Source: an uncultured Candidatus Rokubacteria bacterium (lineage in GTDB: Bacteria > Methylomirabilota > Methylomirabilia > Rokubacteriales > DASRDR01). Taken from it: a DNA stretch of 64,000 nt. The stretch covers positions 32,001 through 96,000 of the forward strand of contig CAWDVE010000018.1 of the NCBI GenBank assembly GCA_963805625.1, in the 5' to 3' direction. Position 1 is the first letter of the stretch. Every line of letters begins with the position of its first letter. Positions 5,623 through 28,378 of the stretch are shown here, piece by piece. Both the position numbers and the translations under genes were made by a program. Below the pieces are notes generated by a model, which did no database searches, was not told where the DNA came from, and was given only the letters and a program-made list of their open reading frames with translations.

Positions 5623-8049
5623 ATGACGACGCGGTTGATCGGTGCGCGCATCTCGCGAAACGAGGATCCGCGGCTCCTCCGGGGGCTGGGCTCGTTCGTC
5701 GACGACATCGAGCCGCGCGGGGTGCTTCACGCCGCGTGCCTCCGCTCCCCGCATGCGCACGCGCGGGTCCTCGCGATCGATACCGCCCGGGCCCGCGCGC
5801 TGCCGGGTGTGCACCTGGTCCTGACCGCTGCCGAGCTCGGCGAGCTCAACCAGCCGTCGCCGCTCCTGATTCCGCACCCGGGCCTGTCCCATCCGAGGAC
5901 CCAGCGGCCGCTCGCGGTCGACCAGGTCCGCTACACGGGCGAGCTCGTCGCCTTCGTGGTGGCCGATGACCGCTACGTGGCCGAGGACGCCGCCGGCCTG
6001 ATCGACGTCGCCTACGAGTCCCTGCCGGTGGTGACCGATCTGGAGGCGGCCGGCAATCCCGGAGGACCGCTCGTCCACGCGGACGTGCCAGCGAACCGCG
6101 CGGCGCGCCTCGTTCAGCAGGTGGGAGACCCGGACGCGGCGTTCAGGCGGGCGGCCCACGTTCTGCAGGAGCGGCTCTATATCGAGCGGAGCTGCGGCAG
6201 CCCGATCGAGGCGCGCGGCGTGGTCGCGGAGTACGACGCCCGGACCGGGCAGCTCCGGGTGTGGAGCTCGACGCAGGCGCCGCTGCCCATCAAGAACGGC
6301 CTCGCCCGGATCTTCGGCCTGCCCGAATTCAAGGTCGAGGTCGTCGTGCCGGACACCGGGGGCGGCTTCGGCACAAAGATCATGCTGTTCTACCCCGAGG
6401 AGATCCTGGTCCCGTACGCGGCGATGCGGCTCGGGCGAGCCGTGAAGTGGACCGAGGACCGCCTCGAGCACTTCGTCAGCGCCAGCCACGAGCGCGGGCA
6501 GCTCCACGACGTCGAGGTCGCCTGTGACGCGGCCGGCCGGATCCTCGGACTCCGGGACCGGTTCCGCCACGACGCCGGGGCCTACACGCCGTATGGCATC
6601 GTCATCCCGCTCATCACTTCGACCCAGCTCCCCGGCCAGTACCGGATCCGGCACTACCAGGTCGAGTTCGACGTGCTCTACACGAACAAGGTGATGACGA
6701 CCCCCTACCGCGGCGCCGGGCGCCCCCACGGCGCCTTCGTCATGGAGCGGGTCATCGGCCTCATCGCTCGCGAGCTCGGGCTCGAGCCCGCCGAGGTGCG
6801 CCGCCGAAACCTCATCCAGCCGGACGAGTTCCCGTGGGACGTGGGGCTTACGTTCCAGGACGGCGGACCGACGCGCTACGACAGCGGGAACTACCCCGCG
6901 GGCCTCGAGATGGCGCTCGAGGCGATCGGCGCGCGAGACTTCCGGGCCCGGCAGGCGGCGGCCCGCGCCGAGGGGCGATACCTCGGCCTCGGCGTCGCCT
7001 GCTACGTCGAGGGGACCGGGATCGGGCCCTACGAGGGCGCCCACGTACGGGTCGAGCCGAGCGGGCGGATCTTCGTGGCGACTGGCCTCACGACGCAGGG
7101 CCAAGGCCACCAGACGACCTTCGCTCAGATCGCCGCCGAGGCGCTCGGGTGCTCGCCGGCCGACGTGACGGTGGTGACCGGCGACACGGGGCGATTCAAC
7201 TGGGGCGCGGGAACGTTCGCGAGCCGCGCGCTGGTGACGAGCGGCAACGCGGTGGCGGCGGCGGCCCGCAAGGTCCGCGACAAGGCGCTCCACCTCGCGG
7301 GCGAGCTGCTCGAGGCCTCGCCGGGCGACATCGAGCTGGTCGACGGCGCTGCCCGGGTCAAGGGGGTGCCCGGACGCGAGCTCACGCTCGGAGCCCTGGC
7401 CACGGTGGCCAACCCGATCCGCTACGCCTACGGGAAGGAGGCGGCGGAGTCGGCGCTCCGGCTCGTCAAGCCTCGCCGCGGCGCCGTCCTCCGCGACGAC
7501 GAGGAACCGGGGCTCGAGGCGCGCGGCTACTACGCGCCGCCGCAGGCGACCTTCGCGAGCGGCTGCCACGCGGCGATCGTCGAGGTGGACGTCGAGACCG
7601 GCGAGGTCACGTTCGAGAAGTATGTCGTCCAGCATGACTGCGGGACCATCGTGAACCCGACGATCGTCGAGGGACAGATCCACGGCGGCGTCGCCCAGGG
7701 CATCGGGGGTGCGCTCTACGAGAAGCTCGCGTACGACGAGCACGGGCAGCTTCTTGCCGGGAGCTTCATGGACTTCCTCATGCCCACAGCCGCGGAGATC
7801 CCCGACATCACCGTCGTTCACCTGGAGACGCCGTCCCCGTTGAACCCGCTGGGCGTCAAGGGGGTGGGCGAGGCCGGGGCCATCCCGGTCCCCGCGCTGG
7901 TGGCCGAGGCGGTGGACGACGCGCTCGCTCCCTTCGGCGTACGGGTGCGCGAGATGCCGCTCAACCCGACCCGGATCCGGGAGCTGGTCGAGCAAGCCAC
8001 CGCCGGTGCCGGCGGACGCGCGTCGATCGGCCGGCGCGCTGGACCCTGA
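5623..8049 (+). CDS. Xanthine dehydrogenase-family molybdopterin large subunit (CoxL form II-like; candidate uracil/thymine dehydrogenase L)
   Basis: GGGFGTK, PYRGAGRP, QGQGHQT, EGQIHGGVAQG, KGVGEAG. Confidence 0.93.
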   Translation: MTTRLIGARISRNEDPRLLRGLGSFVDDIEPRGVLHAACLRSPHAHARVLAIDTARARALPGVHLVLTAAELGELNQPSPLLIPHPGLSHPRTQRPLAVDQVRYTGELVAFVVADDRYVAEDAAGLIDVAYESLPVVTDLEAAGNPGGPLVHADVPANRAARLVQQVGDPDAAFRRAAHVLQERLYIERSCGSPIEARGVVAEYDARTGQLRVWSSTQAPLPIKNGLARIFGLPEFKVEVVVPDTGGGFGTKIMLFYPEEILVPYAAMRLGRAVKWTEDRLEHFVSASHERGQLHDVEVACDAAGRILGLRDRFRHDAGAYTPYGIVIPLITSTQLPGQYRIRHYQVEFDVLYTNKVMTTPYRGAGRPHGAFVMERVIGLIARELGLEPAEVRRRNLIQPDEFPWDVGLTFQDGGPTRYDSGNYPAGLEMALEAIGARDFRARQAAARAEGRYLGLGVACYVEGTGIGPYEGAHVRVEPSGRIFVATGLTTQGQGHQTTFAQIAAEALGCSPADVTVVTGDTGRFNWGAGTFASRALVTSGNAVAAAARKVRDKALHLAGELLEASPGDIELVDGAARVKGVPGRELTLGALATVANPIRYAYGKEAAESALRLVKPRRGAVLRDDEEPGLEARGYYAPPQATFASGCHAAIVEVDVETGEVTFEKYVVQHDCGTIVNPTIVEGQIHGGVAQGIGGALYEKLAYDEHGQLLAGSFMDFLMPTAAEIPDITVVHLETPSPLNPLGVKGVGEAGAIPVPALVAEAVDDALAPFGVRVREMPLNPTRIRELVEQATAGAGGRASIGRRAGP

Positions 8050-9023
8050 TGCAGCCCGTGACGCGGCCACGCCCTGGCGGGAGCGCCCGGCTCCGATCCG
8101 GACTGAGGGCCGTCCGCGTGAGTCGGTGTGTCCGCGATCGGATCGACGCGTGGTGTCGAGCCGTGGTGCTCGGGGTCCAGCGTCGCGCCTGTCATCTCAC
8201 CGTTGATGACGGACCGCTCCTGATTCTCTCGACACCGGACGTACCGCTTGCGCCGAATGCCCTCGCGGTCGACGTGGCGCCCCACGTCACGCTGGGGGAC
8301 GCCGGCTTCCGAATTGGCCAGCTCGTCGCGCTGGGGGCGAGCGCGCCGCCCGACCGTGACGCCGATTGGCTCGTCACCTTCGGGGCGGCGTCGACCTGGG
8401 AGCCGCGCCCCCGCGTCCACCGGGTCGTCCTATGCGACCTGGTCGATCGGTTGCGGGCCGCGCGCGCCACCGTCATCGCCGACGGCGCAGAGGAGTCACT
8501 CCTCCCGCTCCTCTGGGTGTCGGAGTCCGACGTGGCTGGGCTCCGGCCGGGTGTCGTCGAGACGGCGGGTATCGCGGCGCGGCTCCTCTTGGACGCGGCG
8601 ATCCGGCGTGATGCGGCCTCCCTGGCCCGGGCGGCCCGCGGTCTCGCGGGGCTCGGGCCCGGGTTGACCCCATCGGGAGACGATCTCCTCGCCGGTTTCG
8701 CCGCGGCCTGGATCCTGGTCGGTGAAGCCCGCGGTCTCGATCGCGTGGCTCGCGAGCGCGTGACGGAGGCCCTCTTCGCGGGAGCCGAGCGCCGCGCGTC
8801 GGCGCTCGGGCGAGTCTGGCTCGAGCACGCCCTCCGGGGCGAGCTCCTCGAGCCGATGACCCGGTTCGTCGCCGCCTTCCTCGCCGCGGAGCCTCGCGAC
8901 CTCGGCGCGGCCGTGCGCGGCGCGCTCGCGGTTGGATCTTCGTCCGGGACCGACTGGATGGTGGGATTCGTTCTCGGAGCCGTAGCAACCCTCGATCGAG
9001 TGACGCGGAATCAGCCATGGTGA
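8049..9023 (+). CDS. DUF2877 protein (YlbF/AllH/YahE-like)
   Basis: GLGPGLTPSGDDLLAG and GSSSGTD motifs. Confidence 0.85.
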   Translation: MQPVTRPRPGGSARLRSGLRAVRVSRCVRDRIDAWCRAVVLGVQRRACHLTVDDGPLLILSTPDVPLAPNALAVDVAPHVTLGDAGFRIGQLVALGASAPPDRDADWLVTFGAASTWEPRPRVHRVVLCDLVDRLRAARATVIADGAEESLLPLLWVSESDVAGLRPGVVETAGIAARLLLDAAIRRDAASLARAARGLAGLGPGLTPSGDDLLAGFAAAWILVGEARGLDRVARERVTEALFAGAERRASALGRVWLEHALRGELLEPMTRFVAAFLAAEPRDLGAAVRGALAVGSSSGTDWMVGFVLGAVATLDRVTRNQPW

Positions 9024-10471
9024 CGCGGGGCAGGGTGCGGTCCGACACCTTCATCGACTCGGTGGCGCTCATGCAGGTCACGGAACGCGTCCGGGCGCTC
9101 CCCGGCGTCAGGGCGGCCGCCCTGGTGATGGCGACGGACCTGAACCGCCGGCTGCTCGACGAGACCGACCTCCTCCCCGCTGAGGCCAAGCGGGCCGGAT
9201 CGGCCGACCTCGTCATCACGGTGCGCGCGGAGACCGCCACCGCGGCGGACGCCGCTCTCGGTCAGGCCGAGGGATTCCTCGCCGCGCACCGGGGCGACCA
9301 GGGCCCGCACCGGAGCGAGCCGCCGCGCTCGATCGTCAGCTCGGCTCGCCGGCTGCCGGGGGCCAACGTCGCCCTGGTCTCGGTTCCCGGAGCCTATGCG
9401 ACGGCCGAGGCCCACCAGGCGCTCTCGGCCGGACTCCACGTGTTCTTGTTCAGCGATGGCGTGACGCTGGCCGACGAGATCGCGCTCAAGAAACGGGCCG
9501 AGACACGCGGGCTGCTCGTCATGGGACCGGAGTGCGGGACGAGTTTCCTGAACGGCGTGGGGCTCGGCTTCGCGAATCGCGTCCGGCAGGGACACGTCGG
9601 GCTGGTCGCGGCGTCCGGGACCGGACTCCAGGAGGTCGCGAGCCTGATCCACCGGCTGGGCGCGGGAGTCTCGCAGGGCATCGGTACCGGTGGGCGAGAC
9701 CTCCACGAAGCCGTGGGCGGGCTCGCCACGCTCCAGGTCCTGTCCTGGCTGGCCCGGGATCCCGAGACACACGTGATCGGACTCGTCTCGAAGGCCCCGT
9801 CGGCTGCCGTGGCCGAGCGGGTGCTGAAGGCCGCCGGCGCGTCCGGCAAGCCCGTGGTGGCGTACCTGCCCGGCTGGCGCGGGGCGACTCCGGCCGGTGT
9901 GCTGAGCGTGGCGACGCTCGAGGCGGCCGCGCTCGGGTGCGTCCGGGCGCTCGGGCGCAAGAGGCCGGGCTTCGACCGGCAGCGCGGGCGACGTCCGGGG
10001 CGCCCCCGCCCGGGCCAGGTGCTCGGCCTCTTCACGGGCGGCACGCTGTGTGACGAGGCGCGGACGATCGTCGGTGCTGCCGCGCGGGAGTTCATCGACT
10101 TCGGCGCCTCGGACTACACAGGGGGTCGGCCGCATCCGATCATCGACCCGAGTCTCCGGAACGCGGCCCTGGCGCGCGCCGGGAGCGATCGAAAGGTGGG
10201 AGTGCTGCTGATAGACGTGATCCTCGGCGACGGCGCCCATCCGGACCCAGCCGGCGCGCTCGCCGCCGCCATCGGCGAGGCGCGGACCCGCGCCCATCGG
10301 GGGCGCCGGACGCTCGAGGTCGTCGCGCACGTGGTCGGGACCGACGAGGATCCCCAGGGGCTCGCGAAGCAGGAAGGGGCGCTCCGGCGCGCGGGTGCCC
10401 GAGTCTGCCCGACGAACCGCCTGGCCGCCGAGCTGGCGCGAGACCTCGTAGGAGGACGCCGTGGCCGCTGA
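9017..10471 (+). CDS. fdrA: FdrA/AllF/YahF-like acyl-CoA-synthetase-fold protein
   Basis: DSVALMQ, ALVSVPGAYA, MGPECGT, AASGTGLQE, GRPHPIIDP, VVGTDEDPQ. Confidence 0.92.
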   Translation: MVTRGRVRSDTFIDSVALMQVTERVRALPGVRAAALVMATDLNRRLLDETDLLPAEAKRAGSADLVITVRAETATAADAALGQAEGFLAAHRGDQGPHRSEPPRSIVSSARRLPGANVALVSVPGAYATAEAHQALSAGLHVFLFSDGVTLADEIALKKRAETRGLLVMGPECGTSFLNGVGLGFANRVRQGHVGLVAASGTGLQEVASLIHRLGAGVSQGIGTGGRDLHEAVGGLATLQVLSWLARDPETHVIGLVSKAPSAAVAERVLKAAGASGKPVVAYLPGWRGATPAGVLSVATLEAAALGCVRALGRKRPGFDRQRGRRPGRPRPGQVLGLFTGGTLCDEARTIVGAAAREFIDFGASDYTGGRPHPIIDPSLRNAALARAGSDRKVGVLLIDVILGDGAHPDPAGALAAAIGEARTRAHRGRRTLEVVAHVVGTDEDPQGLAKQEGALRRAGARVCPTNRLAAELARDLVGGRRGR

Positions 10472-11867
10472 GGGCGGGCTATTCGGCGCGGAGCTCAGGG
10501 TCGTCAGTGCCGGGGTCGATCTCTTCGCCGACGCGCTCGCCGCCCGCGGCGTCGAGGTCAGCCGCGTGGACTGGCGCCCGCCGGTCTCCGGCACGGCATC
10601 GACTCTCTGGCGAGACGAGGTCGACGCCGCCAACCGCGAGGCGCTCCGGCGACTCAGCGCCGCCCAGCCCGTCCTGATCGACGTCCGTCCGGCCCTCGAG
10701 GTCGTGCCCGGGATGACGCCGACGACGCTGCTCCACGCGGGGCCCCCGCTCCCGTGGGCGCGGATGAGCGGGCCGGTGCGGGGCGCCGTCATCGGGGCGC
10801 TTCTCTACGAGCGCCTCGCCGAGACGCCCGAGGAGGCCGAGCAGCTCGCTGCGTCGGGCGCCCTCGCGTTCGATCCCTGCCACCATCACGGCGCGGTCGG
10901 GCCGATGGCCGGGATCACGACGGCGCGCATGCCGGTCCTCGTGGTCGAGAACCGGACCAACGGCAATCGGAGCTACGCCACCCTGAACGAGGGGCTCGGC
11001 AAGGCGCTTCGCTACGGCGCCTTCGCGCCCGACGTCATCGAGCGGCTCCGGTGGTTCGAGGCGATCCTCGGACCGGCGCTCAGCGAGGTGCTCCGACGGA
11101 TCGGGGGTGTCGACATCCGGAGCCTGATCGCCCAGGCCGTCCAGATGGGAGACGAGTGCCACAACCGGAACCGGGCCGCCTCCGCGCTCCTCATCAAGAC
11201 GCTGGCGCCTCACGTGGCCGCCCTCGACCTCCCGCCGGCGGAGCGCGAGCGCATCCTCACCTTCGCGGCCGGGAATGACCACTTCTTCCTGAACGTGGGC
11301 ATGGCAGCGTGCAAGGCGGCGCTCGACGCCGCCCACGGCGTCCCCCGGAGCAGCATGGTGACGGTGATGGCGCGCAACGGCACCGAGTTCGGCATCCGCG
11401 TGAGCGGGCTCGGCGACCGGTGGTTCACCGGCCCGTCCGGGACGCCAGTCGGGCTCTACTTCGCGGGGTTCAGCGGGGAGGACGCCAACCCCGACATGGG
11501 CGACAGCGCGATCACCGAGACGGCCGGCCTCGGCGCCTTCGCGATGGCCGGCGCGCCGGCCATCGTCCAGTTCGTGGGCGGAACCCCGGCCGACGCGCTG
11601 GGCTACACTCGGCGCATGTACGAGATCACGCTCGGCGAGAGCGAGGCCTACCGGCTGCCGGCGCTCGACTTCCGGGGGACGCCGACCGGGATCGACGTCA
11701 GGCTCGTGCTCCAGACCGGGATCCTGCCCCAGATCAACACGGGCATCGCACACCGCCGCCCGGGGATCGGTCAGATCGGGGCCGGTCTCGTCAATCCGCC
11801 CCTCGCGTGCTTCGAGGCGGCCGGCCGAGCGCTGGCAGCCGAGCTGGCCCGAACGAGCCAGGCGTGA
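10461..11867 (+). CDS. DUF1116 protein (YlbE/AllG/YahG-like)
   Basis: LHAGPP, PCHHHGAVGPMAG, MGDECHNRN, NPDMGDSAITET, PQINTGIAH. Confidence 0.92.
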   Translation: MAAEGGLFGAELRVVSAGVDLFADALAARGVEVSRVDWRPPVSGTASTLWRDEVDAANREALRRLSAAQPVLIDVRPALEVVPGMTPTTLLHAGPPLPWARMSGPVRGAVIGALLYERLAETPEEAEQLAASGALAFDPCHHHGAVGPMAGITTARMPVLVVENRTNGNRSYATLNEGLGKALRYGAFAPDVIERLRWFEAILGPALSEVLRRIGGVDIRSLIAQAVQMGDECHNRNRAASALLIKTLAPHVAALDLPPAERERILTFAAGNDHFFLNVGMAACKAALDAAHGVPRSSMVTVMARNGTEFGIRVSGLGDRWFTGPSGTPVGLYFAGFSGEDANPDMGDSAITETAGLGAFAMAGAPAIVQFVGGTPADALGYTRRMYEITLGESEAYRLPALDFRGTPTGIDVRLVLQTGILPQINTGIAHRRPGIGQIGAGLVNPPLACFEAAGRALAAELARTSQA

Positions 11868-11878
11868 GGGCAGGGGGC

Positions 11879-12703
11879 GTGAGCGCGCTCCGCGCCGCGG
11901 AGGGGGCCGCGCCGGCTCCCACACTGCCGGTCCGGCGGTGGCTCTCGTCATTCGCGGTGGCGGGGGCCCTCGTCCTTGCGTGGGAGGGGAGCAAGGCGCT
12001 GTTCGCGATTCCGCGGTACAAGCTTCCCCACGTCCACGAGATCCTCGGCGAGTTCGTCCGGGAGGGCGCGGACGGCACGCCCTGGCTCCTGATCATGGCC
12101 CACAACGCCGGGTACACGGCGCTCGAGAGCTTCGCCGGCTTCGCGCTCGGAGCCAGCACGGGCCTCGTCTTGGCCGTCCTCTTCGCGCGCTTCCGGCTGC
12201 TCGAGCGGGGCCTCTTGCCCTACGTGATGGTGTCCCAGACGGTGCCGATCCTCGCCGTCGCGCCGATGGTGGTCGTCTGGCTCGGCACCTCGTGGGTATC
12301 CAAGGCGGTGATCGCGGCGTACCTGACCTTCTTCCCGGTGACGGTCAACATGCTGCGGGGCCTCCGGGCGGTCGACCCGGACGCCCTCGCCCTCATGCGG
12401 GCGCTCGCCGCGACGCCGCGTCAGGTATTCCTGAAGCTCCGCTTCCCGGCCGCGCTTCCCTATCTCTTCACCGCGCTGCGGATCTCGGCGACCGCGAGCG
12501 TCGTCGGCGCGATCATCGGCGAGCTCCCGGTCGGGAGCCGGTTCGGGATGGGTGTGGTGATCATCAACGCGGCCCAGTACTACAACTGGCAGCCCGCGAA
12601 CCTCTGGGCGGCCATCCTGGTGTCGGCGCTCCTCGGGATCGCGTTCTACCACGCGGTCGCCGCCGTCGAGCGGCGCTGCATCCGCTGGCAGCCGACGACG
12701 TAG
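11879..12703 (+). CDS. NitT/TauT ABC permease
   Basis: Hydrophobic protein, SQTVPILAVAP, KLRFPAALPYLF; start could alternatively be GTG 11864. Confidence 0.9.
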   Translation: MSALRAAEGAAPAPTLPVRRWLSSFAVAGALVLAWEGSKALFAIPRYKLPHVHEILGEFVREGADGTPWLLIMAHNAGYTALESFAGFALGASTGLVLAVLFARFRLLERGLLPYVMVSQTVPILAVAPMVVVWLGTSWVSKAVIAAYLTFFPVTVNMLRGLRAVDPDALALMRALAATPRQVFLKLRFPAALPYLFTALRISATASVVGAIIGELPVGSRFGMGVVIINAAQYYNWQPANLWAAILVSALLGIAFYHAVAAVERRCIRWQPTT

Positions 12704-12706
12704 GCC

Positions 12707-13753
12707 GTGCCACACAGGACCCTGGCAGCGATTGTCCCGTTTACCAGGACCCGAGAGGCGAACGTCACGCGCTCCCGGTCGGCCGTTCTCCTCGCCCTGA
12801 CCCTGAGCCTCCTCGCTGCTCCGGTCGCCGCCCAGGTGCCGCAGTCCGGGCGAGTATCGCGGATCGGCCTTCTGTTCACGGGCTCGCCTCCACCCGAGTC
12901 CAATCGTGCGGTCGAGGCGTTACGACGCGGCCTCCGCGACCTCGGCTACGTGGAGGGTCGGACCATCCAGCTCGAGTACCGGTGGGCGCCGGAAGGTGGA
13001 TCCGATCAACTCCCTGGTCTGGCGGCTGAGTTGGTCCGTCTCGGGGTGGATGTCATCGTCGCCCAGACGAACGTCCACACCAGGGCGGCCAGCCAGGCGA
13101 CGTCGACGATTCCCATCGTGTTCGGCGCGGTCAGCGATCCGGTCGAGAGCGGTCTCGTGGCCGGCCTGGCCCGGCCGGGCGGGAACGTGACAGGGTCGAG
13201 CTTGCTAGCGCCGGAAGTCGTCAGGAAGCTGCTCGAGTTTCTCAAGGAAGCGGTTCCGGACGCCTCCCGGATCGCTGTTCTCGCAGATCCGGAGGGAAGC
13301 GTGCAGAGCCGGAAGGAGGCAGAGGCGGGGGCCCAGGTGCTGGGTCTGCGGCTTCATCGACTGGACGTGCGCGATCCGAGGGAGCTCGATCAGGCATTCC
13401 AGGCGGCCATGGCGGCCCGCGCCCAGGCCGTCATCACGATTCCGAGCTCCTTCTTTGCCCGACACCGCGGGCGCGTGGCGGAGCTCGCCCTGAAGAGCCG
13501 GCTCCCGGCGGTCTCCATCGAGACGGGATTCGCGGAGGCAGGCGGCCTCCTGTCCTATGGCCCGAACATTCCAGACAGCTTCCGGCGGGCTGCCCTCTAC
13601 GTCGACAAGATCCTCAAGGGCGCGAAGCCGGCCGACTTGCCCGTCGAGCAACCCACCAAGTTCGACCTGGTCCTCAACCTGAAGACCGCCAAGGCGCTCG
13701 GCCTGACGATCCCTCCCTCGGTTCTGGTGCGGGCAGATCGGGTGATCGAATGA
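12707..13753 (+). CDS. ABC_sub_bind-type substrate-binding protein
   Basis: LRDLGYVEG, DPVESGLVAGLARPGGNVTG, KPADLPVEQPTKFDLVLNLKTAKALGLTIP. Confidence 0.92.
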   Translation: MPHRTLAAIVPFTRTREANVTRSRSAVLLALTLSLLAAPVAAQVPQSGRVSRIGLLFTGSPPPESNRAVEALRRGLRDLGYVEGRTIQLEYRWAPEGGSDQLPGLAAELVRLGVDVIVAQTNVHTRAASQATSTIPIVFGAVSDPVESGLVAGLARPGGNVTGSSLLAPEVVRKLLEFLKEAVPDASRIAVLADPEGSVQSRKEAEAGAQVLGLRLHRLDVRDPRELDQAFQAAMAARAQAVITIPSSFFARHRGRVAELALKSRLPAVSIETGFAEAGGLLSYGPNIPDSFRRAALYVDKILKGAKPADLPVEQPTKFDLVLNLKTAKALGLTIPPSVLVRADRVIE

Positions 13754-13791: not shown

Positions 13792-14595
13792 GTGGGGATC
13801 ATCGAGCTCGAGGGCGTGAGCAAGACGTATCCGAGCCCGGCTGGCGAGATGGAGGCGCTCCACGACGTCTCGTTCGCCGTCGAGCGCGGGGAGCTCGTCT
13901 CGCTGATCGGCCCGTCGGGATGCGGGAAGTCCACCCTCCTCCGGATCGTCGGCGACCTCGTCCCGCCATCGGGAGGCGCGGTCACCGTGAACGGGAAGCA
14001 CCCGGGGGCGGCGCGCCTCGACCGGGACTACGGTATCGTGTTCCAGGCGCCCGTGCTCTACGACTGGCGTACGGTGGAGGCCAACGTCGGCCTGCCGCTC
14101 GAGGTGATCGGCTGGCCGCGGCCGGAGCGCGACCAGCGGGTGCGGGCGCTCCTGCGGCTGGTCGGGCTCGACGCCTTCCGCCGCCATTATCCCTGGCAGC
14201 TCTCGGGCGGGATGCAGCAACGGGTCGCCATCGCGCGGGCGCTTGCGACCAATCCGGCGATCCTGCTCATGGACGAGCCGTTCGGAGCGCTCGACGAGAT
14301 GACGCGGGAGCGCCTGAACCTGGAGTTCCTGAACATCTGCCGCGAGACCGGCGCCACCGTGCTCTTCGTCACCCACAGCATCGCGGAGGCGGTCTTCCTC
14401 TCGACCCGCGTCGTCGTGCTAACCGCCCGACCCGGCCGCATCGAGCGGGTGGTGGACGTGGACCTTCCACAGCCCCGTAGCGAGAAGACGCGCGCTCTGC
14501 CGCGCTTCTTCGAGCTGGTCACTTTCGTGCGGGAGCACCTGGTCGAGGACCCCGCCCTGGCCGCCGCGGGGAGCCCCGCCAGCGAGGTTAGGTAG
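13792..14595 (+). CDS. NitT/TauT ABC ATP-binding protein
   Basis: GPSGCGKST, LSGGMQQR, MDEPFGALD. Confidence 0.95.
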   Translation: MGIIELEGVSKTYPSPAGEMEALHDVSFAVERGELVSLIGPSGCGKSTLLRIVGDLVPPSGGAVTVNGKHPGAARLDRDYGIVFQAPVLYDWRTVEANVGLPLEVIGWPRPERDQRVRALLRLVGLDAFRRHYPWQLSGGMQQRVAIARALATNPAILLMDEPFGALDEMTRERLNLEFLNICRETGATVLFVTHSIAEAVFLSTRVVVLTARPGRIERVVDVDLPQPRSEKTRALPRFFELVTFVREHLVEDPALAAAGSPASEVR

Positions 14596-14598
14596 CCG

Positions 14599-17744: not shown

Positions 17745-18071
17745 ATGATCTCGAGGCACTGGAAGGGCATCGCCAGGCCGGGGCAGGCAGAGCGGTACGT
17801 CGACCACCTCCGGCGCGACGTCTTCCCGAAGCTCGTGGCGATTCCCGGCTTCGTCCGCACCACGATCCTGAGGCGAGAGGTCGCCGACGGCACCGAGTTC
17901 CAGATCGTCACGGTGTGGCGCTCGCTGAGCGCCGTCGAGACGTTTGCCGGGAAGGATCCGGACGCCGCCGTCGTTCCGCCCATCGTCCAGGCGATGATGG
18001 CGGCCTATGATCGTGACGTCGTGCGCCACGAGCTGGCCGACAGCTACGAGCCCGTGGCACAGCCCCAGTGA
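17745..18071 (+). CDS. ABM/dimeric alpha-beta barrel small protein
   Basis: MISRHWKG...IPGF...VTVWRSLSAVETFAG pattern. Confidence 0.75.
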   Translation: MISRHWKGIARPGQAERYVDHLRRDVFPKLVAIPGFVRTTILRREVADGTEFQIVTVWRSLSAVETFAGKDPDAAVVPPIVQAMMAAYDRDVVRHELADSYEPVAQPQ

Positions 18072-19941: not shown

Positions 19942-20775
19942 ATGGCCCCGCCGCTCGTCCGGCTCGAGCGGGTCTCGAAGCGCTACGAAGTCGCCCGGCG
20001 GCCGGGGCCCGCCGGCGTCGAGGAGGAGACCGCACTGCAGGCGGTCACCGACTTCACGCTCGACGTGGGGGCGGGGGAGTTCGTCTCCATCATCGGTCCC
20101 TCCGGGTGCGGCAAGACCACGGTGCTGTTCCTCCTGGCCGGCCTGCGACCGCCCAGCGCCGGCCACGTGGAGGTCTGCGGCCAGCCCGCCGCCAATGCGA
20201 TGCGGAGCGGGCTGGCAAGCGTCATCTTCCAGCAGCCCGTCCTCTTCGAGTGGCTGACGGTGGAGGACAACGTCCTCCTCCCGCTGCGGATGCGGGACCC
20301 GCGCTGGTGGGCGTGGCCGCTTCGCCGGCGGGGCTACGCGGCGCGCGCCCATGAGGCCCTGGCCACGGTCGAGCTCGACGCGTTCGCCCACTACCGGCCA
20401 GACGCCCTGTCCGGGGGCATGCAGCAGCGCGTGGCGATCGCGCGGGCGCTGACGCTGGCGCCCCGGGTCCTGCTGCTCGACGAGCCCTTCGGGGCGCTGG
20501 ACGAGCTCACGCGCGATCGGATGAACCAAGAGCTGCTCCGGCTCTGGGAGGCACGTGGTCTCAGCATTGTCTTCGTGACGCACTCGATCGAGGAGGCGGT
20601 CTTCCTCTCCGACCGCGTCGTCGTGATGGGCCGGGCGCGCTCGGAAAAGACCGGCTCCAGCATCGTGCGGATCGTCGACGTGGACTTGCCCCGGCCGCGT
20701 CGCCTGGCGGTGAAGGAGGAGGTCGCCTTCTTCCAGAAGGTGCGCGAGGGGCGCGAGGCGCTCCGGGAGGCGTAG
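19942..20775 (+). CDS. NitT/TauT ABC ATP-binding protein
   Basis: GPSGCGKTT, LSGGMQQR, LDEPFGALD. Confidence 0.95.
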   Translation: MAPPLVRLERVSKRYEVARRPGPAGVEEETALQAVTDFTLDVGAGEFVSIIGPSGCGKTTVLFLLAGLRPPSAGHVEVCGQPAANAMRSGLASVIFQQPVLFEWLTVEDNVLLPLRMRDPRWWAWPLRRRGYAARAHEALATVELDAFAHYRPDALSGGMQQRVAIARALTLAPRVLLLDEPFGALDELTRDRMNQELLRLWEARGLSIVFVTHSIEEAVFLSDRVVVMGRARSEKTGSSIVRIVDVDLPRPRRLAVKEEVAFFQKVREGREALREA

Positions 20776-21016: not shown

Positions 21017-21569
21017 ATGACACCCCTCAGATTGGCTGGTCTTGTGATCGCGACTCTGCTCGCGGTGCCTCATGCCGGTCGACGACGAACGCAAGAAGGT
21101 CTTGGACTTCGACAGCCCTTATCATCTCCTGCAAAGCACCTATTTGGTGGCGCCCGGCTCGCCCATCCACACGCTTGCGGATGCCAACCGCGCCGGCGTG
21201 CGCATCTTCGGTGCGCAGGATACGGCGACCTTCCGCGCCTCCAACCGCGCCTCGCCCAACGCCACCCATACCGCGGTTGCCGGGCCCGTCAACGCGATCG
21301 AAACGATGCTGGCGGGCAAGGCCGATGCGATCGCGCTCGGGCGCGCATCGCTCGGCGGCATCGCCGCCAAGATTCCGGGCTCGCGCATCCTCGAGGGCGG
21401 CTTTCTCAATTCCACGACCGCCATCGCCGTGCCGAAAGGAAAGCCCGCGGCGCTGGCTTACGTGAGCGCGTTTGTCGAGGAGGCAAAGGCGTCGGGCCTG
21501 GTGCGCCGCGGCTTGGACAGCGTCGGGCTGACGAACGAGCAGGTTGCGCCGGCGGGCATGAAACCATAG
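21017..21569 (+). pseudogene. Family-3 (polar amino acid) substrate-binding protein with internal deletion
   Basis: RBS and signal peptide MTPLRLAGLVIATLLAV join out of frame to the mid-protein MPVDDERKKVLDFDSPY. Confidence 0.7.
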
Positions 21570-21747
21570 TTGTTGCGAAGACAGGCCACGCAACATCACC
21601 TCTCCGCGCGCGGATGGCTAAATTCACGGCCCCCGCTTCACGTACTCGCCGAGAACGCATTCAGTCCGCCATCGTGATTCGCCGTCGGCCGACTAAGATC
21701 GTCGTCCAGTGACGGAGCGCCCAGCCTCGAGTGGTGGGACCGGATCG

Positions 21748-24700
21748 ATGCCTGAGGCTCCGGCCCGGCTCCGGGTTGGGATCGACACCGGCGGCACGTT
21801 CACCGACGTCGTCGCCGTGGAAGAGGCGACGGGCGAGATCTTCGCGACCAAGACGCCATCCAGGCCCGAGGATCCGTCGCTCGCCGTGCTGGAAGGGCTG
21901 CGGAAGGTCCTGCGGCTCGCCGGGGCGCCGGCCGGCGCGGTGGTGGCGGTCTCGCACGGGACGACGGTCGCGACGAACGCGCTCCTGGAGGAGCGGTTCG
22001 ACGAGCTCGGGCTGGTGACGACCGAGGGGTTCCGGCACGTCCTCGAGATCGCGCGGCAGAGCGTCCCGCAGGGCTACGGCAACTCCTACTTCTGGGTGAA
22101 GCCGGCGCGGATCGTGCCGCTGCACTGCGTGCGCGAGGTCCCGGAGCGCGTGAGCCACCGGGGCGAGGTCCTGCGGGAGTTCGATGAGTCGGCGGCGGCC
22201 GAGGTGGCCGGGTGGTGCCGGCGCCGGGGCATCTCGGCGATCGGCGTGAGCTTTCTCCACGGCTACGCCAACCCGGCGCACGAGCAGCGGATGCGGGCAG
22301 CGCTCGCCCGCGTGCACCCGGAGGCGCACGTCTCGCTCTCCTCCGAGGTGTGGCCGGAGTACCGGGAGTACGAGCGCACCGTAACGACACTGGTCGACGC
22401 CTTCGCCAAGGGCCGTGTGTCCGGCTACGTGGAGCGGATCGGGGCCCGGCTCGCCACGGAGCTCGGGCCCGGCGTGCCCTTCCAGGTGATGAAGTCCAAC
22501 GGCGGCGTGATCTCCGCCCGCGAGGTCGTCAGCCACCCGATCACCACCATCCTGAGCGGACCGGCCGCCGGCGCGCTCGGCGCCGCGTTTCTGGCCGCCG
22601 CCGCCGGCTTCGAGCGCATCCTCACCATGGATGCGGGCGGGACCAGCACCGACGTCTGCCTGGTCGAGGGTGGCGAACCGGGGCTCACCACCGATGGCAC
22701 CGTCGGCCGGTTCCCTGTCAAGGTGCCGATGATCGATCTCGTCACGGTCGGGACGGGCGGCGGCTCGATCGCCTCGCGCGCGCCCGACGGCGGCCTCAAG
22801 GTCGGGCCGGCCAGCGCGGGCGCGGACCCCGGGCCCATGTGCTACGGCCGCGGCGGCACGCGGCCCACCGTCACCGACGCCCAGCTCGTCCTCGGACGCA
22901 TCCCGCAGCATCTCCTCGGCGGCGAGGTGCCGCTGTCGCTCGAGCTCGCCCGGAAGGGCATCGAGGCCCTCGCCGCGGAGCTCAGCCTCACCCCCGAGCG
23001 CACGGCCGAGGGCATCCTCGAGATCGCGGTTTGGAACCAGGCCAACGCCGTCGAGCAGATGAGCGTCAAGCGCGGCCTCGATCCGCGGGATTACACGCTG
23101 GTGGCGTTCGGCGGCTCCGGTCCTCTCCAGGCGGGCCGCCTCGTCGAGCTGCTGGGCCTGCGCGCGGCTCTCATTCCTGCGTCGCCCGGCACGGTCTCCG
23201 CCTTCGGCCTTCTCACCGTCGACCTCAAGAACGACTACGTCCAGACCGCCGTGCAGCGCCACGACCGGCTCGATCTCGCCCTCGTCAACGGCCACCTGGC
23301 GCGGCTCGAGGCGAAGGCGGCCGCGGCACTCGCCCGCGAAGGCGTGCCGGAGTCGGCGCGCCGTCTGGTCCGCCTGGCCGACCTCCGGTACTTCGGCCAG
23401 GCGTGGGAAGTCACCGTGGCGCTGCCGTCCGGTGCGATCGACGCCGCGGGCGCCGCCGAGACCGTGGAGCGCTTCCACGCCGCCCACGAGAAGCGCTACG
23501 GCTACAGCTATCGGGGCGAGCGTCCGGATGCGAGCGGGACCCGACAAGGGGTCGAATGGGTGAACGTGAGGGTCGTGGGTGTCGGCGTGACCGGGCGTCC
23601 GACGCCGCGGGCGCTCGCCGTCGGCGACGGGCACGCCGAGCGCGCCCGGACGGGAACGCGGCGCGTCGGGTTCGCCGGGGGAGACGTCGAGTGCCCCGTG
23701 TACGATCGCGCGCGGCTCCAGCCGGGCGATCGCCTGGCCGGCCCCGCGATCGTGGAGGAGTTCGGCGCCACGACCGTCGTCTGCCCCGGCCAGCGCGTCG
23801 AGGTCGACCGCTTCGGCAACATGATCCTGACCAGCGCGGCCGTGGCCACCCCCGCGCATAGGGCCGATGCTGGGACCGACACGATGCCCGGAGAGGCGCC
23901 GGCCAGCCCCGGGATCCAGCCCGCCCCCCCAGATCCCATCATTCTCCAGATTGTGCAGGGGACGCTGACCTCGGTCGAGGCGGAGGTCGAGGCGGCCATC
24001 GAGCGGACCGCCCGGTCGCCGATGATCCGGGAGGCGCGGGACTTCCGGGCTGGCATCCATGACCGGCACTGCAGGAAACTCACCGGCCGCTCGTACTCGT
24101 CCCTCGTCCAGCCGGTGGTGCGGGACTTCCCGCCGGACACGATGCGGCCCGGCGACGTCTACTTCCACAACGACGTCTACGAGTCGGAGGGCGGGATCGG
24201 CCATCTCCCCGACCTCTGCGTGACGGTGCCGGTCTTCGATCCTCATCAGGGAGACCGAGTGGTCGCGTTCGTTCAGGCGTTCGGGCACCACGACGACATT
24301 GGCGGGGCCGTGCCCGGCTCGATGCCGTCCCACGCCACGAGCGCCCACCAGGAAGGTCTGATGGTCCCGCCGGTCAAGCTCTACGACGCGGGTCGCCCGA
24401 ACCGCGACGTGCTCCGGATCCTCGTGCGGAACTCGCGGCTCCCCGACAGCCTCCGCGGCGACCTCGACAGCGAGGTCTCGGCCTGCCGGCTGGGCGCCGC
24501 GCGGCTCGGCGCGCTCTTTGGCCGGTACGGCGCGGCCCAGGTCGAGGCGTGCTTCGAGGCGATCCTCGCGCGGACGACTGAGACCTTCCGCCGGGAGCTC
24601 CTCGCCCGGATCCCCGATGGCACCCACACGTGGGAGGACTACGCCGAGCACGACGGCGTCGACCCGCCCCGGCTACACGCGCAGCGCATCACCATGACCA

Positions 24701-25803
24701 AGGCCGGCGGCCGCCTGATCCTCGACTTCACGGGCACGAGCCCCCAGGCCCGGGGGCCAATCAACCACGCCGGCAACTACGCCGACGGCGTGTTCCTCAA
24801 GAAGTGGCTCGCCCCGATCCTGCGCAACCTCGCCGACACGCCCGAGCGGATGGCCGAGCTGGACGTCAACGAGGGGGTCGTCCCGCTGATCGAGCTTCGG
24901 TTCCCGCCGCCCGGGACCCTGCTGACGCCGGTCTTCCCGGCTCCGACCAACGCGCGTACGTTCGTCATCCTGCGCCTGCTCGGGGTGCTCGCCGGCGTCC
25001 TTGCCAAGGCCACCGGGGGCCGCATGCCGGCCGACCAGGAGACGATCCGCTACACGGGCTTTCACGGCACGGATCCCGAGGGCGAGTTCTACCTGATGCG
25101 CGAGGTGCTCGGAGGCGGGTCGGGCGGCCGGCACTACGCGGAGGGCTCCGACGTCGTGCACATCGTGCCGGACAGCAAGAACCTGCCCGTCGAGTTCACG
25201 GAGACGCGCTTCCCGCTCCGGATCGAGCGGCTCGCCCTGGCGACGGACTCCGGCGGCGCGGGCCGGCGGCGTGGCGGGCTCGGCTACCTGAAGGAGTTCC
25301 GCACCCTCGCGGACAGCTACTTCCTCTCGGTGGCCGACCGCTCGATCCTCTCCTGTTGGGGACTTGAGGGCGGCCGGGCGGGGCAGCCGTTCCGGGTGAC
25401 GGTCGACCCGGGCGGTAGGGGCGAGCGCGTCCTGCCCGGCCTGGTCGACGATGAGCCGATCCCGGCGGGGACGCTCGTGCGCGTCGAGACAACCGGCGGC
25501 GGCGGCTGGGGCGATCCCCTCGAGCGTGAGCCGTCGCGCGTGATCCTCGACGTGGTCCAGGGCAAGGTCTCGGCGCGGGCGGCCCGGGAGGAGTACGGGG
25601 TGGTCCTGGTCCCGGATCCCCACGGCGAGGTGAGCCACGACGCGGATGCCACCGCCGCGCTACGGGACCGGCTTCGAGAAACACGTGGGCGGCTGCCGTT
25701 CTTCGATCGGGGGCCGGGCTACCGGCGCCTCGCCGGCCGGGACCAGGCTGACGTCGACCTCCTCGATCCGGCGGGGGCTGGGCTGGAGCCCGAGCGGCCG
25801 TGA
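21748..25803 (+). CDS. Fused hydantoinase A+B / 5-oxoprolinase-type ATP-dependent amidohydrolase
   Basis: IDTGGTFTD, HGTTVATN, SGPAAG, DAGGTSTD in the A half; HLPD, HHDDIGG, DSGGAG, GGGGWGDP in the B half; alternative start 21709. Confidence 0.95.
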   Translation: MPEAPARLRVGIDTGGTFTDVVAVEEATGEIFATKTPSRPEDPSLAVLEGLRKVLRLAGAPAGAVVAVSHGTTVATNALLEERFDELGLVTTEGFRHVLEIARQSVPQGYGNSYFWVKPARIVPLHCVREVPERVSHRGEVLREFDESAAAEVAGWCRRRGISAIGVSFLHGYANPAHEQRMRAALARVHPEAHVSLSSEVWPEYREYERTVTTLVDAFAKGRVSGYVERIGARLATELGPGVPFQVMKSNGGVISAREVVSHPITTILSGPAAGALGAAFLAAAAGFERILTMDAGGTSTDVCLVEGGEPGLTTDGTVGRFPVKVPMIDLVTVGTGGGSIASRAPDGGLKVGPASAGADPGPMCYGRGGTRPTVTDAQLVLGRIPQHLLGGEVPLSLELARKGIEALAAELSLTPERTAEGILEIAVWNQANAVEQMSVKRGLDPRDYTLVAFGGSGPLQAGRLVELLGLRAALIPASPGTVSAFGLLTVDLKNDYVQTAVQRHDRLDLALVNGHLARLEAKAAAALAREGVPESARRLVRLADLRYFGQAWEVTVALPSGAIDAAGAAETVERFHAAHEKRYGYSYRGERPDASGTRQGVEWVNVRVVGVGVTGRPTPRALAVGDGHAERARTGTRRVGFAGGDVECPVYDRARLQPGDRLAGPAIVEEFGATTVVCPGQRVEVDRFGNMILTSAAVATPAHRADAGTDTMPGEAPASPGIQPAPPDPIILQIVQGTLTSVEAEVEAAIERTARSPMIREARDFRAGIHDRHCRKLTGRSYSSLVQPVVRDFPPDTMRPGDVYFHNDVYESEGGIGHLPDLCVTVPVFDPHQGDRVVAFVQAFGHHDDIGGAVPGSMPSHATSAHQEGLMVPPVKLYDAGRPNRDVLRILVRNSRLPDSLRGDLDSEVSACRLGAARLGALFGRYGAAQVEACFEAILARTTETFRRELLARIPDGTHTWEDYAEHDGVDPPRLHAQRITMTKAGGRLILDFTGTSPQARGPINHAGNYADGVFLKKWLAPILRNLADTPERMAELDVNEGVVPLIELRFPPPGTLLTPVFPAPTNARTFVILRLLGVLAGVLAKATGGRMPADQETIRYTGFHGTDPEGEFYLMREVLGGGSGGRHYAEGSDVVHIVPDSKNLPVEFTETRFPLRIERLALATDSGGAGRRRGGLGYLKEFRTLADSYFLSVADRSILSCWGLEGGRAGQPFRVTVDPGGRGERVLPGLVDDEPIPAGTLVRVETTGGGGWGDPLEREPSRVILDVVQGKVSARAAREEYGVVLVPDPHGEVSHDADATAALRDRLRETRGRLPFFDRGPGYRRLAGRDQADVDLLDPAGAGLEPERP

Positions 25804-26678
25804 AGCCCCCCGTCTTCGAGTACACGGCGGTCAGCTCGATCGACGAGGCCGTTGCCGAGCTCGGGCAGCACGGCGATGCGGCGAAGCTCCTCGCCGGGGG
25901 CCAGAGCCTTGTCCCGCTCCTGAACATGCGACTGGCCACGCCCGAGCGCCTGATCGATCTCAACCGCGTGGCGGAGCTCGTGTACATCACGGTTCGCAGC
26001 GGCGGCCTTGCCGTAGGGGCGATGACGCGGCAGCGGGCCGTGGAGCGCAGCGCGCTCGCCGCCACGCACGTTCCCCTCCTGAGCGACGCGCTCCCTTGGG
26101 TGGGACACTTCCAGATCCGGAACCGCGGGACCCTGGGGGGCAGCCTGAGCCATGCCGACCCGGCCGCCGAGCTGCCGGCGGTGGCTCTCTGCCTAGACGC
26201 CCGCTTCACCGTCCGGGGGCCGGCGGGCGAGCGGACGCTCGTGGCGCAGGAGTTCTTCTTGACCCAGTTGACTACGGCTCTCGCGCCGACCGAGCTGCTC
26301 ACCGAGGCCTGGTTCCCCGCGATCCCGCGGAACTCGGGTTCGGCCTGGCTCGAGCTGGCCCGGCGCCACGGGGATTACGCGCTCGTCGGCGTGGGGGCGG
26401 TCGTGACGATGTCGGGCGACGAAATCGGGGAGGCGCGGATCGCCCTGACCGGGGTGGGGGACCGGCCCATCCGGGCGCGCGAGGCCGAGGCGCAACTCAT
26501 GGGTGAGTCGCCCACGCCGAGCATGCTGGCCGAGGCTGTCGAGGCTGTCCGGCGGGCGATCGACCCGGGGAGCGACATCCACGCGACCGCGGCGTACCGT
26601 CGGCACATCGCCGGCGTGCTCACCGGGCGGGCCATCCGGCTCGCCGTGGCGCGTGCGACGGGAGCCGAGCGTGCCTGA
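25800..26678 (+). CDS. Mo-hydroxylase FAD subunit (CoxM-like)
   Basis: [26 protein letters not shown]. Confidence 0.95.
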
Positions 26679-26741: not shown

Positions 26742-27239
26742 ATGACGCCAGCCCCGCTCGAGATGTGCCTGCGGGTCAACGGGCGCGAGCACGCGGAAAC
26801 AGTGCCGCCGCGCCTCTTGCTCTCGGACTTCCTCCGCCACCGCCTGGGCCTGACCGGCACCCACGTCGGGTGCGAGCACGGCGTCTGCGGGGCCTGCACT
26901 GTGCTCCTCGACGGCGAGGCGGTGCGGTCGTGCCTGCTCCTCGCCATCCAGGCCGCCGGCGCCGAGGTGACGACCGTCGAGGGGCTGGCGGAGGCGGACG
27001 GCCCGCTCCATCCGGTCCAGCAGGCCTTCCACGAGATGCACGCGCTCCAGTGCGGGTTCTGCACGCCGGGGTTTCTCCTGTCGGTCGTCGCCTTCCTGCG
27101 GGACGTACCTGCACCCTCGGACGACGAGATCCGGCGCGGGCTGGCGGGCAATCTCTGTCGCTGTACCGGCTACCAGAACATCGTGCGGGCCGTCCGGCGG
27201 GCGAGCGAGCTCCTGGCGGACCCGCCGCCGCCCGCCTGA
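26742..27239 (+). CDS. Mo-hydroxylase 2Fe-2S subunit (CoxS-like)
   Basis: [23 protein letters not shown]. Confidence 0.95.
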
Positions 27240-27283
27240 CGGGCGCGGGCGAACGAGACCCTCTGACCACGGAGAACCAGGCG

Positions 27284-28378
27284 ATGGCAACCGAGGTAGC
27301 CAAGGTCGAGCTCAAGACGGTGCAGGACGCCTCCGGTCTCGAGGCAGCGATCCTCGCGGGGCGGTTCACCGCCGACCAGGTCGTGGCGGTGGTCGGCAAG
27401 ACCGAGGGCAATGGCGGCGTCAACGACTTCACCCGCATCCTCGCCGACCAGGCCTTCCGGCGTGTGCTACAGCAATACGGGCGCCGCAGCGCCGAGGAGG
27501 TCGCGCGGGTGCCCATGGTGTGGTCGGGCGGGTGCGATGGCGTGCTCACCCCGCACGCCACCGTGTTCGCGCGGAACGAGCGGCGGGGACCGGCTGGCCA
27601 GCCGCGGCTCGTCATCGGCGCCGCGATGAGCGCCGAGCTCTTGCCCGAAGACATCGGCCGGCCGGCCATGGTCGAGAAGGTCGCCGAGGGGGTGCGAGCC
27701 GCGATGCGGGACGCCGACCTCCAGGACGCGGCCGACGTGCACTACGTCCAGACGAAGACGCCGCTCCTCACGATCGAGTCCGTGGCCGACGCTCACCGCC
27801 GGGGCCACGGCGTGGCCTGCAAGGTCCACGAATCCATGGATGTCTCGAACGGCACGACCGCGCTCGGCATCGCCGTCGCGCTCGGCGAGATCCCGATGCC
27901 GCGCGCCGAGCAGATTTGCCAGGACTTCGACCTCTATTCATCGGTCGCCTCGTGCTCATCCGGTGTGGAGCTGACGCGGGCCCAGATCGTGCTGATGGGC
28001 AACCGGGCGGGCGCCGGCGGCCGGTACCGGATCGGCCACAGCGTGATGAAGGACGCCCTGGATCTCGACGGGATCTACGAGGCGATCCGGGATGCGGGCC
28101 TGGACCTGCCGGCCCGGCCTCGCGCTGAGGACCTCGGCGGGCGTCTCGTCAACTGCTTCGTGAAGTGCGAGGCGGACCACCGCGGGGTGCTGCGCGGCCG
28201 CCGCCAGATCATGCTCGACGACTCGGACGTACACCACCACCGCCACGCCAAGGCGGCGGTCGGGGCCGTGGTGGCAGCCGCCATCGGCGATCCCGCCGTC
28301 TTCGTCTCGGTCGGGGCCATGCACCAGGGGCCCCACGGCGGCGGGCCGGTCGTCGCGATCGTCAACGTCGGGGAGTGA
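27284..28378 (+). CDS. Barbiturase (ring-opening amidohydrolase, AtzD/Bar family)
   Basis: [37 protein letters not shown]: barbiturase-type rather than cyanuric acid hydrolase-type variants. Confidence 0.88.

Follow-up and report, generated by a model that had tools for sequence, protein, structure and literature searches.

In this report we describe a gene cluster from an uncultured Candidatus Rokubacteria bacterium, whose genome of 7.27 Mb is 99.9% complete. The DNA analysed, hereafter the window, is a stretch of 64,000 nucleotides (positions 32,001 to 96,000 of contig CAWDVE010000018.1, assembly GCA_963805625.1; G000:C18:32001-96000 in our numbering), and the cluster occupies positions 5623-28378 of it. 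Its genes encode, or are predicted to encode, a molybdenum-dependent hydroxylase (Mo-hydroxylase), a barbiturase-like ring opener, and homologues of the three AllFGH carbamoyltransferase subunits, together with a cytosine deaminase and two ATP-binding cassette (ABC) importers, in the following order:

5623-8049, plus strand: large subunit (L) of a Mo-hydroxylase, likely uracil/thymine dehydrogenase L (Pfam MoCoBD; clade membership; loop PYRGAGR)
8049-9023, plus strand: AllH/DUF2877 homologue (PF11392, 73 bits)
9017-10471, plus strand: AllF/FdrA homologue with a YahF-like domain boundary (PF00549; PRK06091 401.7 bits, below the cut-off of 433)
10461-11867, plus strand: AllG/DUF1116 homologue (PF06545, 324 bits)
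11864-12703, plus strand: ABC permease, importer 1 (PF00528)
12707-13753, plus strand: inserted ABC_sub_bind protein (PF04392)
13792-14595, plus strand: ABC ATPase, importer 1 (PF00005)
14599-15369, plus strand: ABC permease, importer 1 (PF00528)
15417-16433, plus strand: NMT1/THI5-type binding protein, importer 1 (PF09084)
16454-17722, plus strand: cytosine deaminase CodA (above two NCBIfam cut-offs)
17745-18071, plus strand: small ABM-fold protein (PF03992, 28 bits)
18068-18883, plus strand: permease, importer 2 (PF00528)
18912-19925, plus strand: NMT1-type binding protein, importer 2 (PF09084)
19942-20775, plus strand: ATPase, importer 2 (PF00005)
21072-21569, plus strand: partial gene for a solute-binding protein of family 3, in the gap separating importer 2 from hyuAB
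21709-25803, plus strand: fused HyuAB of the hydantoinase/oxoprolinase (ATP-dependent lactamase) family, 1364 amino acids (PF05378/PF01968/PF19278/PF02538)
25800-26678, plus strand: Mo-hydroxylase FAD subunit (M; PF00941, PF03450)
26742-27239, plus strand: Mo-hydroxylase 2Fe-2S subunit (S; two Cys clusters in the translation)
27284-28378, plus strand: barbiturase-clade ring-opening amidohydrolase (PF09663, 476 bits; PDB search; signature columns; tree)

The first-pass annotation of this DNA had named CodA, the three Mo-hydroxylase subunits, a barbiturase, the DUF2877/FdrA/DUF1116 trio, and two NMT1 importers, and all of these genes are indeed present and co-oriented; its inventory was correct for the genes that it named, but it overlooked hyuAB. 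Start and stop codons overlap along the run from the L subunit through AllH, AllF, and AllG to the first permease, and likewise between hyuAB and M, and the same core gene order is kept in same-genus genomes. CodA exceeds the cut-offs of two curated NCBIfam models (PRK07572, 509 bits against 438, and PRK09230, 496 against 483). A search of the first 40 kb of the window turned up no racemase-fold gene, no amidase, and no carbamate kinase, in agreement with the earlier statement that the locus lacks the first and the last of these, and family searches of the whole genome placed none of the three on the window.

The ring opener, the last gene of the cluster, scores 486 bits against the barbiturase of PDB entry 5HWE and 325 bits against the best cyanuric acid hydrolase, and its alignment to 5HWE preserves the catalytic Ser and Lys residues of the Toblerone family, namely K39, S81, K158, S225, K294, and S342. 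Barbiturases constitute group VI of the AtzD/Bar family, and their signature, in AtzD numbering, is given in the available text of Peat et al. (2013, PMC3758960) as Asn195, His321, Lys325, Val345, and Ser/Ala346, of which the ring opener carries four (N189, H319, K323, and V343). In a FastTree phylogeny it belongs to a clade of 118 rows (support 100), set apart from proteins with the cyanuric acid hydrolase signature and including the product of the Rhodococcus-type locus L144, which is identical to 5HWE at 368 of 369 positions and shares 64% identity with the ring opener. Its closest named homologues, among the best 80 of at least 578 GTDB candidates, are from Rokubacteria, and the host genome has this single AtzD-family gene. 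The enzyme is treated here as the likely candidate for the hydrolysis of barbiturate to ureidomalonate, a prediction from its sequence. A predicted structure of the protein was discarded (predicted local distance difference test, pLDDT, of 47; shallow alignment).

The step before ring opening would fall to the Mo-hydroxylase. In a tree of 33 selected large subunits, the L subunit lies in a clade of 19 rows (Shimodaira-Hasegawa-like approximate likelihood ratio test, 100) composed solely of subunits from bar or atzD clusters, L144 included; the placement with barbiturase-linked subunits draws also on a FastTree phylogeny of 47 rows. None of the ten paralogues in the same genome lies inside this clade. 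Genes for M and S accompany L in the cluster, and the three subunits L, M, and S are 48%, 36%, and 64% identical to those beside the L144 barbiturase. From their position beside a 5HWE-like bar gene, we infer that the Mo genes of L144 are those of the characterised uracil/thymine dehydrogenase, and the window enzyme is likely to have the same function. The NCBIfam model NF040766 (aerobic carbon-monoxide dehydrogenase large subunit, group 5) offers a different name, since it gives the window L subunit 1072 bits against a cut-off of 950, and the enzyme could then be an aerobic CO dehydrogenase unrelated to the pathway. This is extremely improbable, for the model gives the L144 subunit a still higher score of 1401 bits, the clade is tied to bar or atzD genes across phyla, and the window protein has the loop PYRGAGR in place of the form I active-site loop, which we take to be AYxCSFR and which the paralogue at C12:9135 has as AYRCSFR. 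NF040766 exceeds its cut-off across the barbiturase-linked clade (window 5623-8049; L144, L156, and L158), and its application to these proteins is probably a mislabel, judging from their sequences.

Regarding the trio, AllH keeps the 12 near-invariant residues of its family, and AllF the conserved G370-R371-x-H373-P374, so that FdrA, DUF1116, and DUF2877 proteins with the residues expected of an AllFGH enzyme are all encoded. The subunits AllF, AllG, and AllH match their E. coli counterparts with 38%, 50%, and 35% identity over the matched parts. However, the order is H-F-G and not the allF-allG-allH-allK of the allantoin type, the boundary between F and G is shifted with respect to E. coli, neither allantoin (all) nor kinase genes occur in the cluster, and the genome has no intact kinase. 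The shift consists in the N-terminus of the window AllG being the segment that E. coli AllF carries C-terminally, the same arrangement as in YahG, and a tree places the window AllG outside the E. coli AllG branch. A structural model of AllG (pLDDT 94) matched a single structure, 3CLQ (root-mean-square deviation of 0.8 Å), and gave no hint of the substrate. Purified E. coli AllFGH forms oxalurate when given oxamate, carbamoyl phosphate, and Mg2+, with no CoA added (Kim and Kim 2024, PMC11326118), and no substrates other than oxamate and oxalurate are given in the available text of that paper. By analogy, the window trio is predicted to perform the same acylurea phosphorolysis on a substrate longer by one CH2.

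The E. coli yah region resembles the window more closely in several respects: the yahE-yahF-yahG-yahI-yahJ genes (L114) have the same gene order and domain split and a CodA-family neighbour, and the bit scores of the window proteins to YahF (319) and YahG (456) exceed those to AllF (281) and AllG (410), even if the identity of AllF to YahF and to E. coli AllF is the same (38%). In E. coli K-12, yahI is carbamate kinase-like and yahJ deaminase-like, whereas an AtzD-family gene and a Mo enzyme are both lacking there. Among the papers listed by our literature search, none gave a substrate for the yahEFG trio, which may, by analogy, act on yet another acylurea.

To see how often such trios accompany barbiturases, loci were assembled from 61 genomes of relatives (27 with an AtzD-family gene, loci taken from 18), from the 80 best GTDB candidates mentioned above, from an Actinomycetota sample (22 of 401 genomes matched, loci taken from 20), from a family sample including the Rhodococcus-type loci (28 of 301 matched, 15 full-length bar-type loci taken), and from two further named records. 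Once 15 loci lacking the barbiturase signature and a single duplicate had been removed, 121 bar-type loci remained, many of them cut off by contig ends, and their genes were counted by six-frame profile searches. Genes of the AllHFG families stand beside the barbiturase-type gene in 27 of the 121, spread over four lineages of Rokubacteria, Pseudomonadota, and Actinomycetota; they are on the same strand as bar in all 27 and within 3.5 kb of it in 20, and in many loci allH or allF starts no more than about 150 bases from the bar match. A carbamate kinase (CK) is present in 17 of the 121 loci. The typical order in Actinomycetota is bar-permease-CK-allH-allF-allG-(Mo M, S, L), and in Acidimicrobiia bar-allH-allF-allG, while the gammaproteobacterial locus L105 reads bar-CK-allH-allF-allG-malonyl-CoA decarboxylase-malonyl-CoA synthase, an order that ties the trio to a malonyl skeleton. 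Because the core order recurs in same-genus genomes and the 27 loci are without exception co-oriented, the linkage goes beyond chance, and there is support for the view that AllHFG recurs alongside barbiturase-type genes, often separated from them by a carbamate kinase. The co-occurrence anticipated in the first-pass annotation was thus borne out. At six loci (L063, L069, L070, L078, L086, and L088) bar is followed by allF-allG with allH undetected in the fetched stretch, and four alphaproteobacterial loci (L093, L094, L099, and L102) are two-gene codA-bar units that have neither an amidase close by nor AllG anywhere in the genome.

The oxidative pyrimidine route of textbooks, that of Rhodococcus, releases urea from the ring-opened product. 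For the window cluster we consider a different ending rather probable, with every substrate assignment inferred from the genes, families, synteny, and clades that are observed. The two NMT1-type ABC systems would import pyrimidines, CodA would convert cytosine to uracil, the Mo enzyme would oxidise uracil to barbiturate, and the barbiturase-clade enzyme would open barbiturate to ureidomalonate. AllHFG, in place of the amidase of the Rhodococcus-type loci, would then cleave ureidomalonate with phosphate to malonamate and carbamoyl phosphate, a phosphorolysis like that of E. coli AllFGH on oxalurate, a substrate with one CH2 fewer. An amidase gene located elsewhere would provide for the hydrolysis of malonamate, and malonate would proceed to malonyl-CoA.

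The trio might instead cut the other bond, with a CoA-ligase-like AllF moving the malonyl group to CoA and yielding malonyl-CoA and urea. AllF does have CoA-binding and CoA-ligase domains, FdrA was proposed as a CoA ligase before the enzyme had been assayed (PMC3364942, available text), no malonamidase is evident at many bar-allHFG loci, and the host genome combines a urease-like gene (628 bits, cut-off 680) with the lack of an intact carbamate kinase. Nonetheless this reaction is very unlikely in view of the activity of E. coli AllFGH without added CoA, the carbamate kinases in the operons of the 17 loci, and the separate malonyl-CoA synthase encoded in L105.

The earlier idea that ureidomalonase has a racemase fold did not hold: an amidase-signature protein is encoded directly after bar in 13 of 15 Mycobacteriaceae-type loci, and five racemase-type queries returned one weak match in the 121 bar-type loci, so that a racemase fold is unlikely. 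The host genome has two racemase-fold genes, both on contigs other than that of the window. The amidase of the Rhodococcus-type loci is probably the ureidomalonase, and an amidase is also found nearby in most alphaproteobacterial bar loci; the amidase tree does not resolve the Rhodococcus-type amidases and the bar-linked ones of Proteobacteria as orthologues. Compared with the Rhodococcus erythropolis route, the window shares the barbiturase-clade opener, Mo subunits L, M, and S of the same clade, a HyuAB orthologue nearby, and, in its relatives, a close upp gene. The two differ in that the window has AllHFG, CodA, and NMT1-type ABC importers, whereas the Rhodococcus-type loci have the amidase and an NCS2 permease, with no AllG in the genome in any of the 13 Mycobacteriaceae where the amidase adjoins bar. 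Of the 15 Mycobacteriaceae bar loci (L139-L153), 14 also contain a family III CoA-transferase and a carboxyltransferase, a pair that is likely a malonate-to-acetyl-CoA module.

Amidase and AllG were tallied genome-wide in 80 genomes with bar (32 from Actinomycetota and 48 represented among the 80 GTDB loci, hand-picked for locus types and longer contigs). Where an amidase lies within 6 kb of bar, AllG occurs in 8 of 47 genomes; where none does, it occurs in 27 of 33 (Fisher p ~1e-8, raw counts). Orthologues of the Rhodococcus-type amidase are at least 77% identical in 13 amidase-type genomes, and nothing above 42% was found in the 18 AllG-bearing Actinomycetota or four Rokubacteria searched. 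All 17 bar-type genomes of the Actinomycetota sample have AllG, and none a close orthologue of that amidase. Within the family sample itself, G484 has bar-CK, allHFG 26 kb distant, and no Rhodococcus-type amidase orthologue.

A first alternative is that AllHFG acts on oxalurate or another acylurea (triuret, biuret, or carboxybiuret) within a shared nitrogen-scavenging island, with ureidomalonate left to an unlinked amidase. Oxalurate is the only substrate demonstrated for the family (in the available text of PMC11326118), the trio family occurs with biuret-hydrolase-like genes as well, both in our loci and in PMC12625717 (available text), and amidase and AllFG stand together in some loci. Furthermore, among the 16 amidase matches that the genome search for a malonamidase, suggested earlier, did return, the one at C10:902381 is sister to the proteobacterial bar-linked amidase clade, and could be the malonamidase or, if the unlinked amidase is the real enzyme, the ureidomalonase. 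We regard this alternative as unlikely given the absence of allantoin genes, the position of AllG outside the E. coli branch, the many loci where allH or allF begins within some 150 bases of bar, and the 16 of 17 sampled Actinomycetota in which no amidase matches that of the Rhodococcus type at E 1e-70 or better.

Several observations weigh against ureidomalonate phosphorolysis by AllHFG as the ending of the pathway. The residue of the ring opener that corresponds to AtzD position 346 is Gly344, in contrast to the Ser/Ala of group VI and the Asp of most proteobacterial relatives of the opener, and for this reason it is filed as barbiturase-clade and not as a strict member of group VI; the Mo L subunit departs from its Rhodococcus-type counterpart in two segments close to the active site. 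The cluster has no amidase, the 16 matches lying elsewhere in the genome, and the host lacks an intact carbamate kinase. The exclusion between amidase and AllG is not significant for independent pairs on the 79-row barbiturase tree (four pairs, median p = 1), and it is not used as proof. Four loci (L063, L070, L078, and L088, annotated betaproteobacterial or similar) have AllFG and an amidase beside bar, with AllH undetected; six of the 80 bar genomes have neither an amidase near bar nor AllG; and in six of seven alphaproteobacterial genomes with AllG and no amidase the AllG locus lies away from bar, in four cases with biuret-hydrolase-like or similar genes. The anti-correlation proposed in the first-pass annotation is therefore strong in raw counts, but it does not survive the independent pairs. 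Of its wider interpretation, the recurrent pairing of the trio with barbiturase and the Mo clade stand, while the racemase fold, an energy gain in this host, and a significant amidase exclusion do not.

A last point of this kind is that the Mo and AllG clades of the window are also found, in related Rokubacteria (Mo 76-83%, AllG 64-78%), beside AtzD proteins with the cyanuric acid hydrolase signature R195/T321/R325. This leads to a triazine as the true or shared substrate, in which 5-azacytosine or 5-azauracil would be oxidised to cyanurate, the ring would be opened to carboxybiuret, and AllHFG would release allophanate and carbamoyl phosphate. An enterobacterial plasmid with the order atzD-permease-allHFG-arcC points the same way. 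The reading is nevertheless quite unlikely for the window, whose ring opener has barbiturase residues and is the only AtzD-family protein of the host, and cyanuric acid is reported as non-reactive with barbiturase (PMC4051656, available text). The Rokubacterial R195/T321/R325 proteins (L019-L025, L028, L029, and L031) have a Trp before the first SGG and Ala345, and represent a triazine form of the pathway or, alternatively, a convergent barbiturase.

AllFG genes occur in still other settings. The plasmid operon (L138:6701-16779, NZ_CP042536.1) comprises genes for a membrane protein, a cyanuric-acid-hydrolase-type enzyme, an NCS2 permease, allH, allF, allG, arcC, and a LysR regulator; 38 of the 40 plasmid matches listed are enterobacterial or from related Gammaproteobacteria (47% identity), the operon order being taken from one of them, and a similar set, lacking the kinase, is present in L117. 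In Alphaproteobacteria, Betaproteobacteria, and Rokubacteria, allF-allG (at some loci with allH and kinase) adjoin biuret-hydrolase-like or allophanate hydrolase genes (L179, L183, L195, L170, and L184). The nitrifier allFGHK genes beside biuret/triuret hydrolases (PMC12625717) are, according to the available text, alike in standing outside an allantoin context and near carbamoyl-urea genes, but their substrate is kept there as oxalurate; the string "barbitur" does not occur in the available main text and three supplements of that paper. Full-text searches (titles, abstracts, and passages, with subscription papers thinly covered) found no literature linking AllFGH to barbiturase or ureidomalonate. 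The neighbours of AllFG each make or handle a carbamoyl-amide, which fits one chemistry with several substrates, and these neighbourhoods also keep a triazine or mixed-substrate reading open. More broadly, and at somewhat less than even odds in our estimate, AllFGH-type trios would be widespread acylurea:phosphate carbamoyltransferases behind different ring openers, acting on ureidomalonate after barbiturase, carboxybiuret or biuret after cyanuric acid hydrolase, and oxalurate after allantoin enzymes. In that reading, a carbamate kinase would let the breakdown of pyrimidines and triazines yield ATP, and HyuAB would be the ATP-dependent opener of the thymine branch.

HyuAB is a conserved companion of barbiturase. 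Of 59 bar genomes, 46 have a close orthologue, among them all 15 of the Mycobacteriaceae type; so do 7 of the 61 relatives, all seven of which have an AtzD-family gene. Since it is found in both AllG-bearing and amidase-type genomes, it is part of the core of both versions of the pathway and no specific feeder of AllHFG. As a guess by analogy, HyuAB might use ATP to open the 5-methylbarbiturate formed from thymine, a suggestion that leans on the chemistry of the HyuAB family and on the strict specificity of barbiturase. CodA-family enzymes also deaminate creatinine, and among PDB entries HyuAB scores highest against an N-methylhydantoinase (692 bits), so CodA and HyuAB could form a creatinine or hydantoin route, AllHFG acting on the N-carbamoyl product of HyuAB. 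We find this most unlikely, because HyuAB is present in the 13 amidase-type Mycobacteriaceae without AllG, hence tracking barbiturase and not AllHFG, and no hyu gene appears in the fetched stretch of 20 of the 27 loci with bar and All genes.

Concerning the fate of carbamoyl phosphate, the earlier reading of an energy-conserving route holds in part: many other genomes have the kinase in the operon, among them many Actinomycetota, where a gain of ATP through carbamate kinase is plausible, but in the host it finds no support. The genome search for an intact kinase returned a single homologue, C17:312005-312943, at 244 bits against the TIGR00746 cut-off of 358, with GGR, HGGVPPG, and QVD in place of GGN, HGNGPQVG, and DKD. 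GGN and HGNGPQVG are kept in 25 of 27 other aligned kinases, the two exceptions being from same-genus genomes. The kinase is also below the cut-off in three same-genus genomes with the cluster, and two other Rokubacteria gave no match. With the sole kinase of the host degenerate, carbamoyl phosphate would more likely enter pyrimidine or arginine synthesis there. In the host, the kinase follows a 176-amino-acid C-terminal piece of a second allG (L009, G000:C17:311472-312943); the equivalent locus of same-genus genomes has a full allG with the same degenerate kinase, and that of other Rokubacteria keeps allHFG-kinase, often near pyrB/pyrC and a hydantoin-racemase-type gene, so that L009 looks like a decaying ancestral locus.

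As for the remaining features of the region, the ABC_sub_bind gene (12707-13753) lies at a site where relatives have variable insertions, its copies varying in number or being absent, and its product is probably outside the pathway. Relatives have other small insertions at the 21072-21569 junction and at neighbouring junctions, and the ABM-fold gene is present in one of three same-genus clusters compared. Upstream of the cluster (window 1089-3735) are a BBE-type FAD oxidase and a divergent AraC/DJ-1 regulator, and downstream (28726-31610) a peptide-type ABC transporter. Four same-genus relatives instead have upp, the gene for uracil phosphoribosyltransferase, next to the cluster on the upstream side of the Mo gene. 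A promoter and terminator scan gave sites no more frequent than in shuffles, and the share of the window contained in two RNA runs was small (0.12 and 0.05).

If ureidomalonate is indeed cleaved by AllHFG, the route of oxidative pyrimidine breakdown, known chiefly from Rhodococcus, would have a second ending in which the ureido group of the ring is retained as carbamoyl phosphate, and this ending would occur in Rokubacteria of soil and water, Actinomycetota, and Pseudomonadota. It would also mean a second substrate for a family of transcarbamylases whose description dates only from 2024, and would suggest an approach to testing the orphan yahEFG-I-J operon of E. coli. Finally, genes of the cyanuric-acid-hydrolase type are followed by the same trio and kinase, so that the finding, if true, would bear on the breakdown of cyanuric acid as well.

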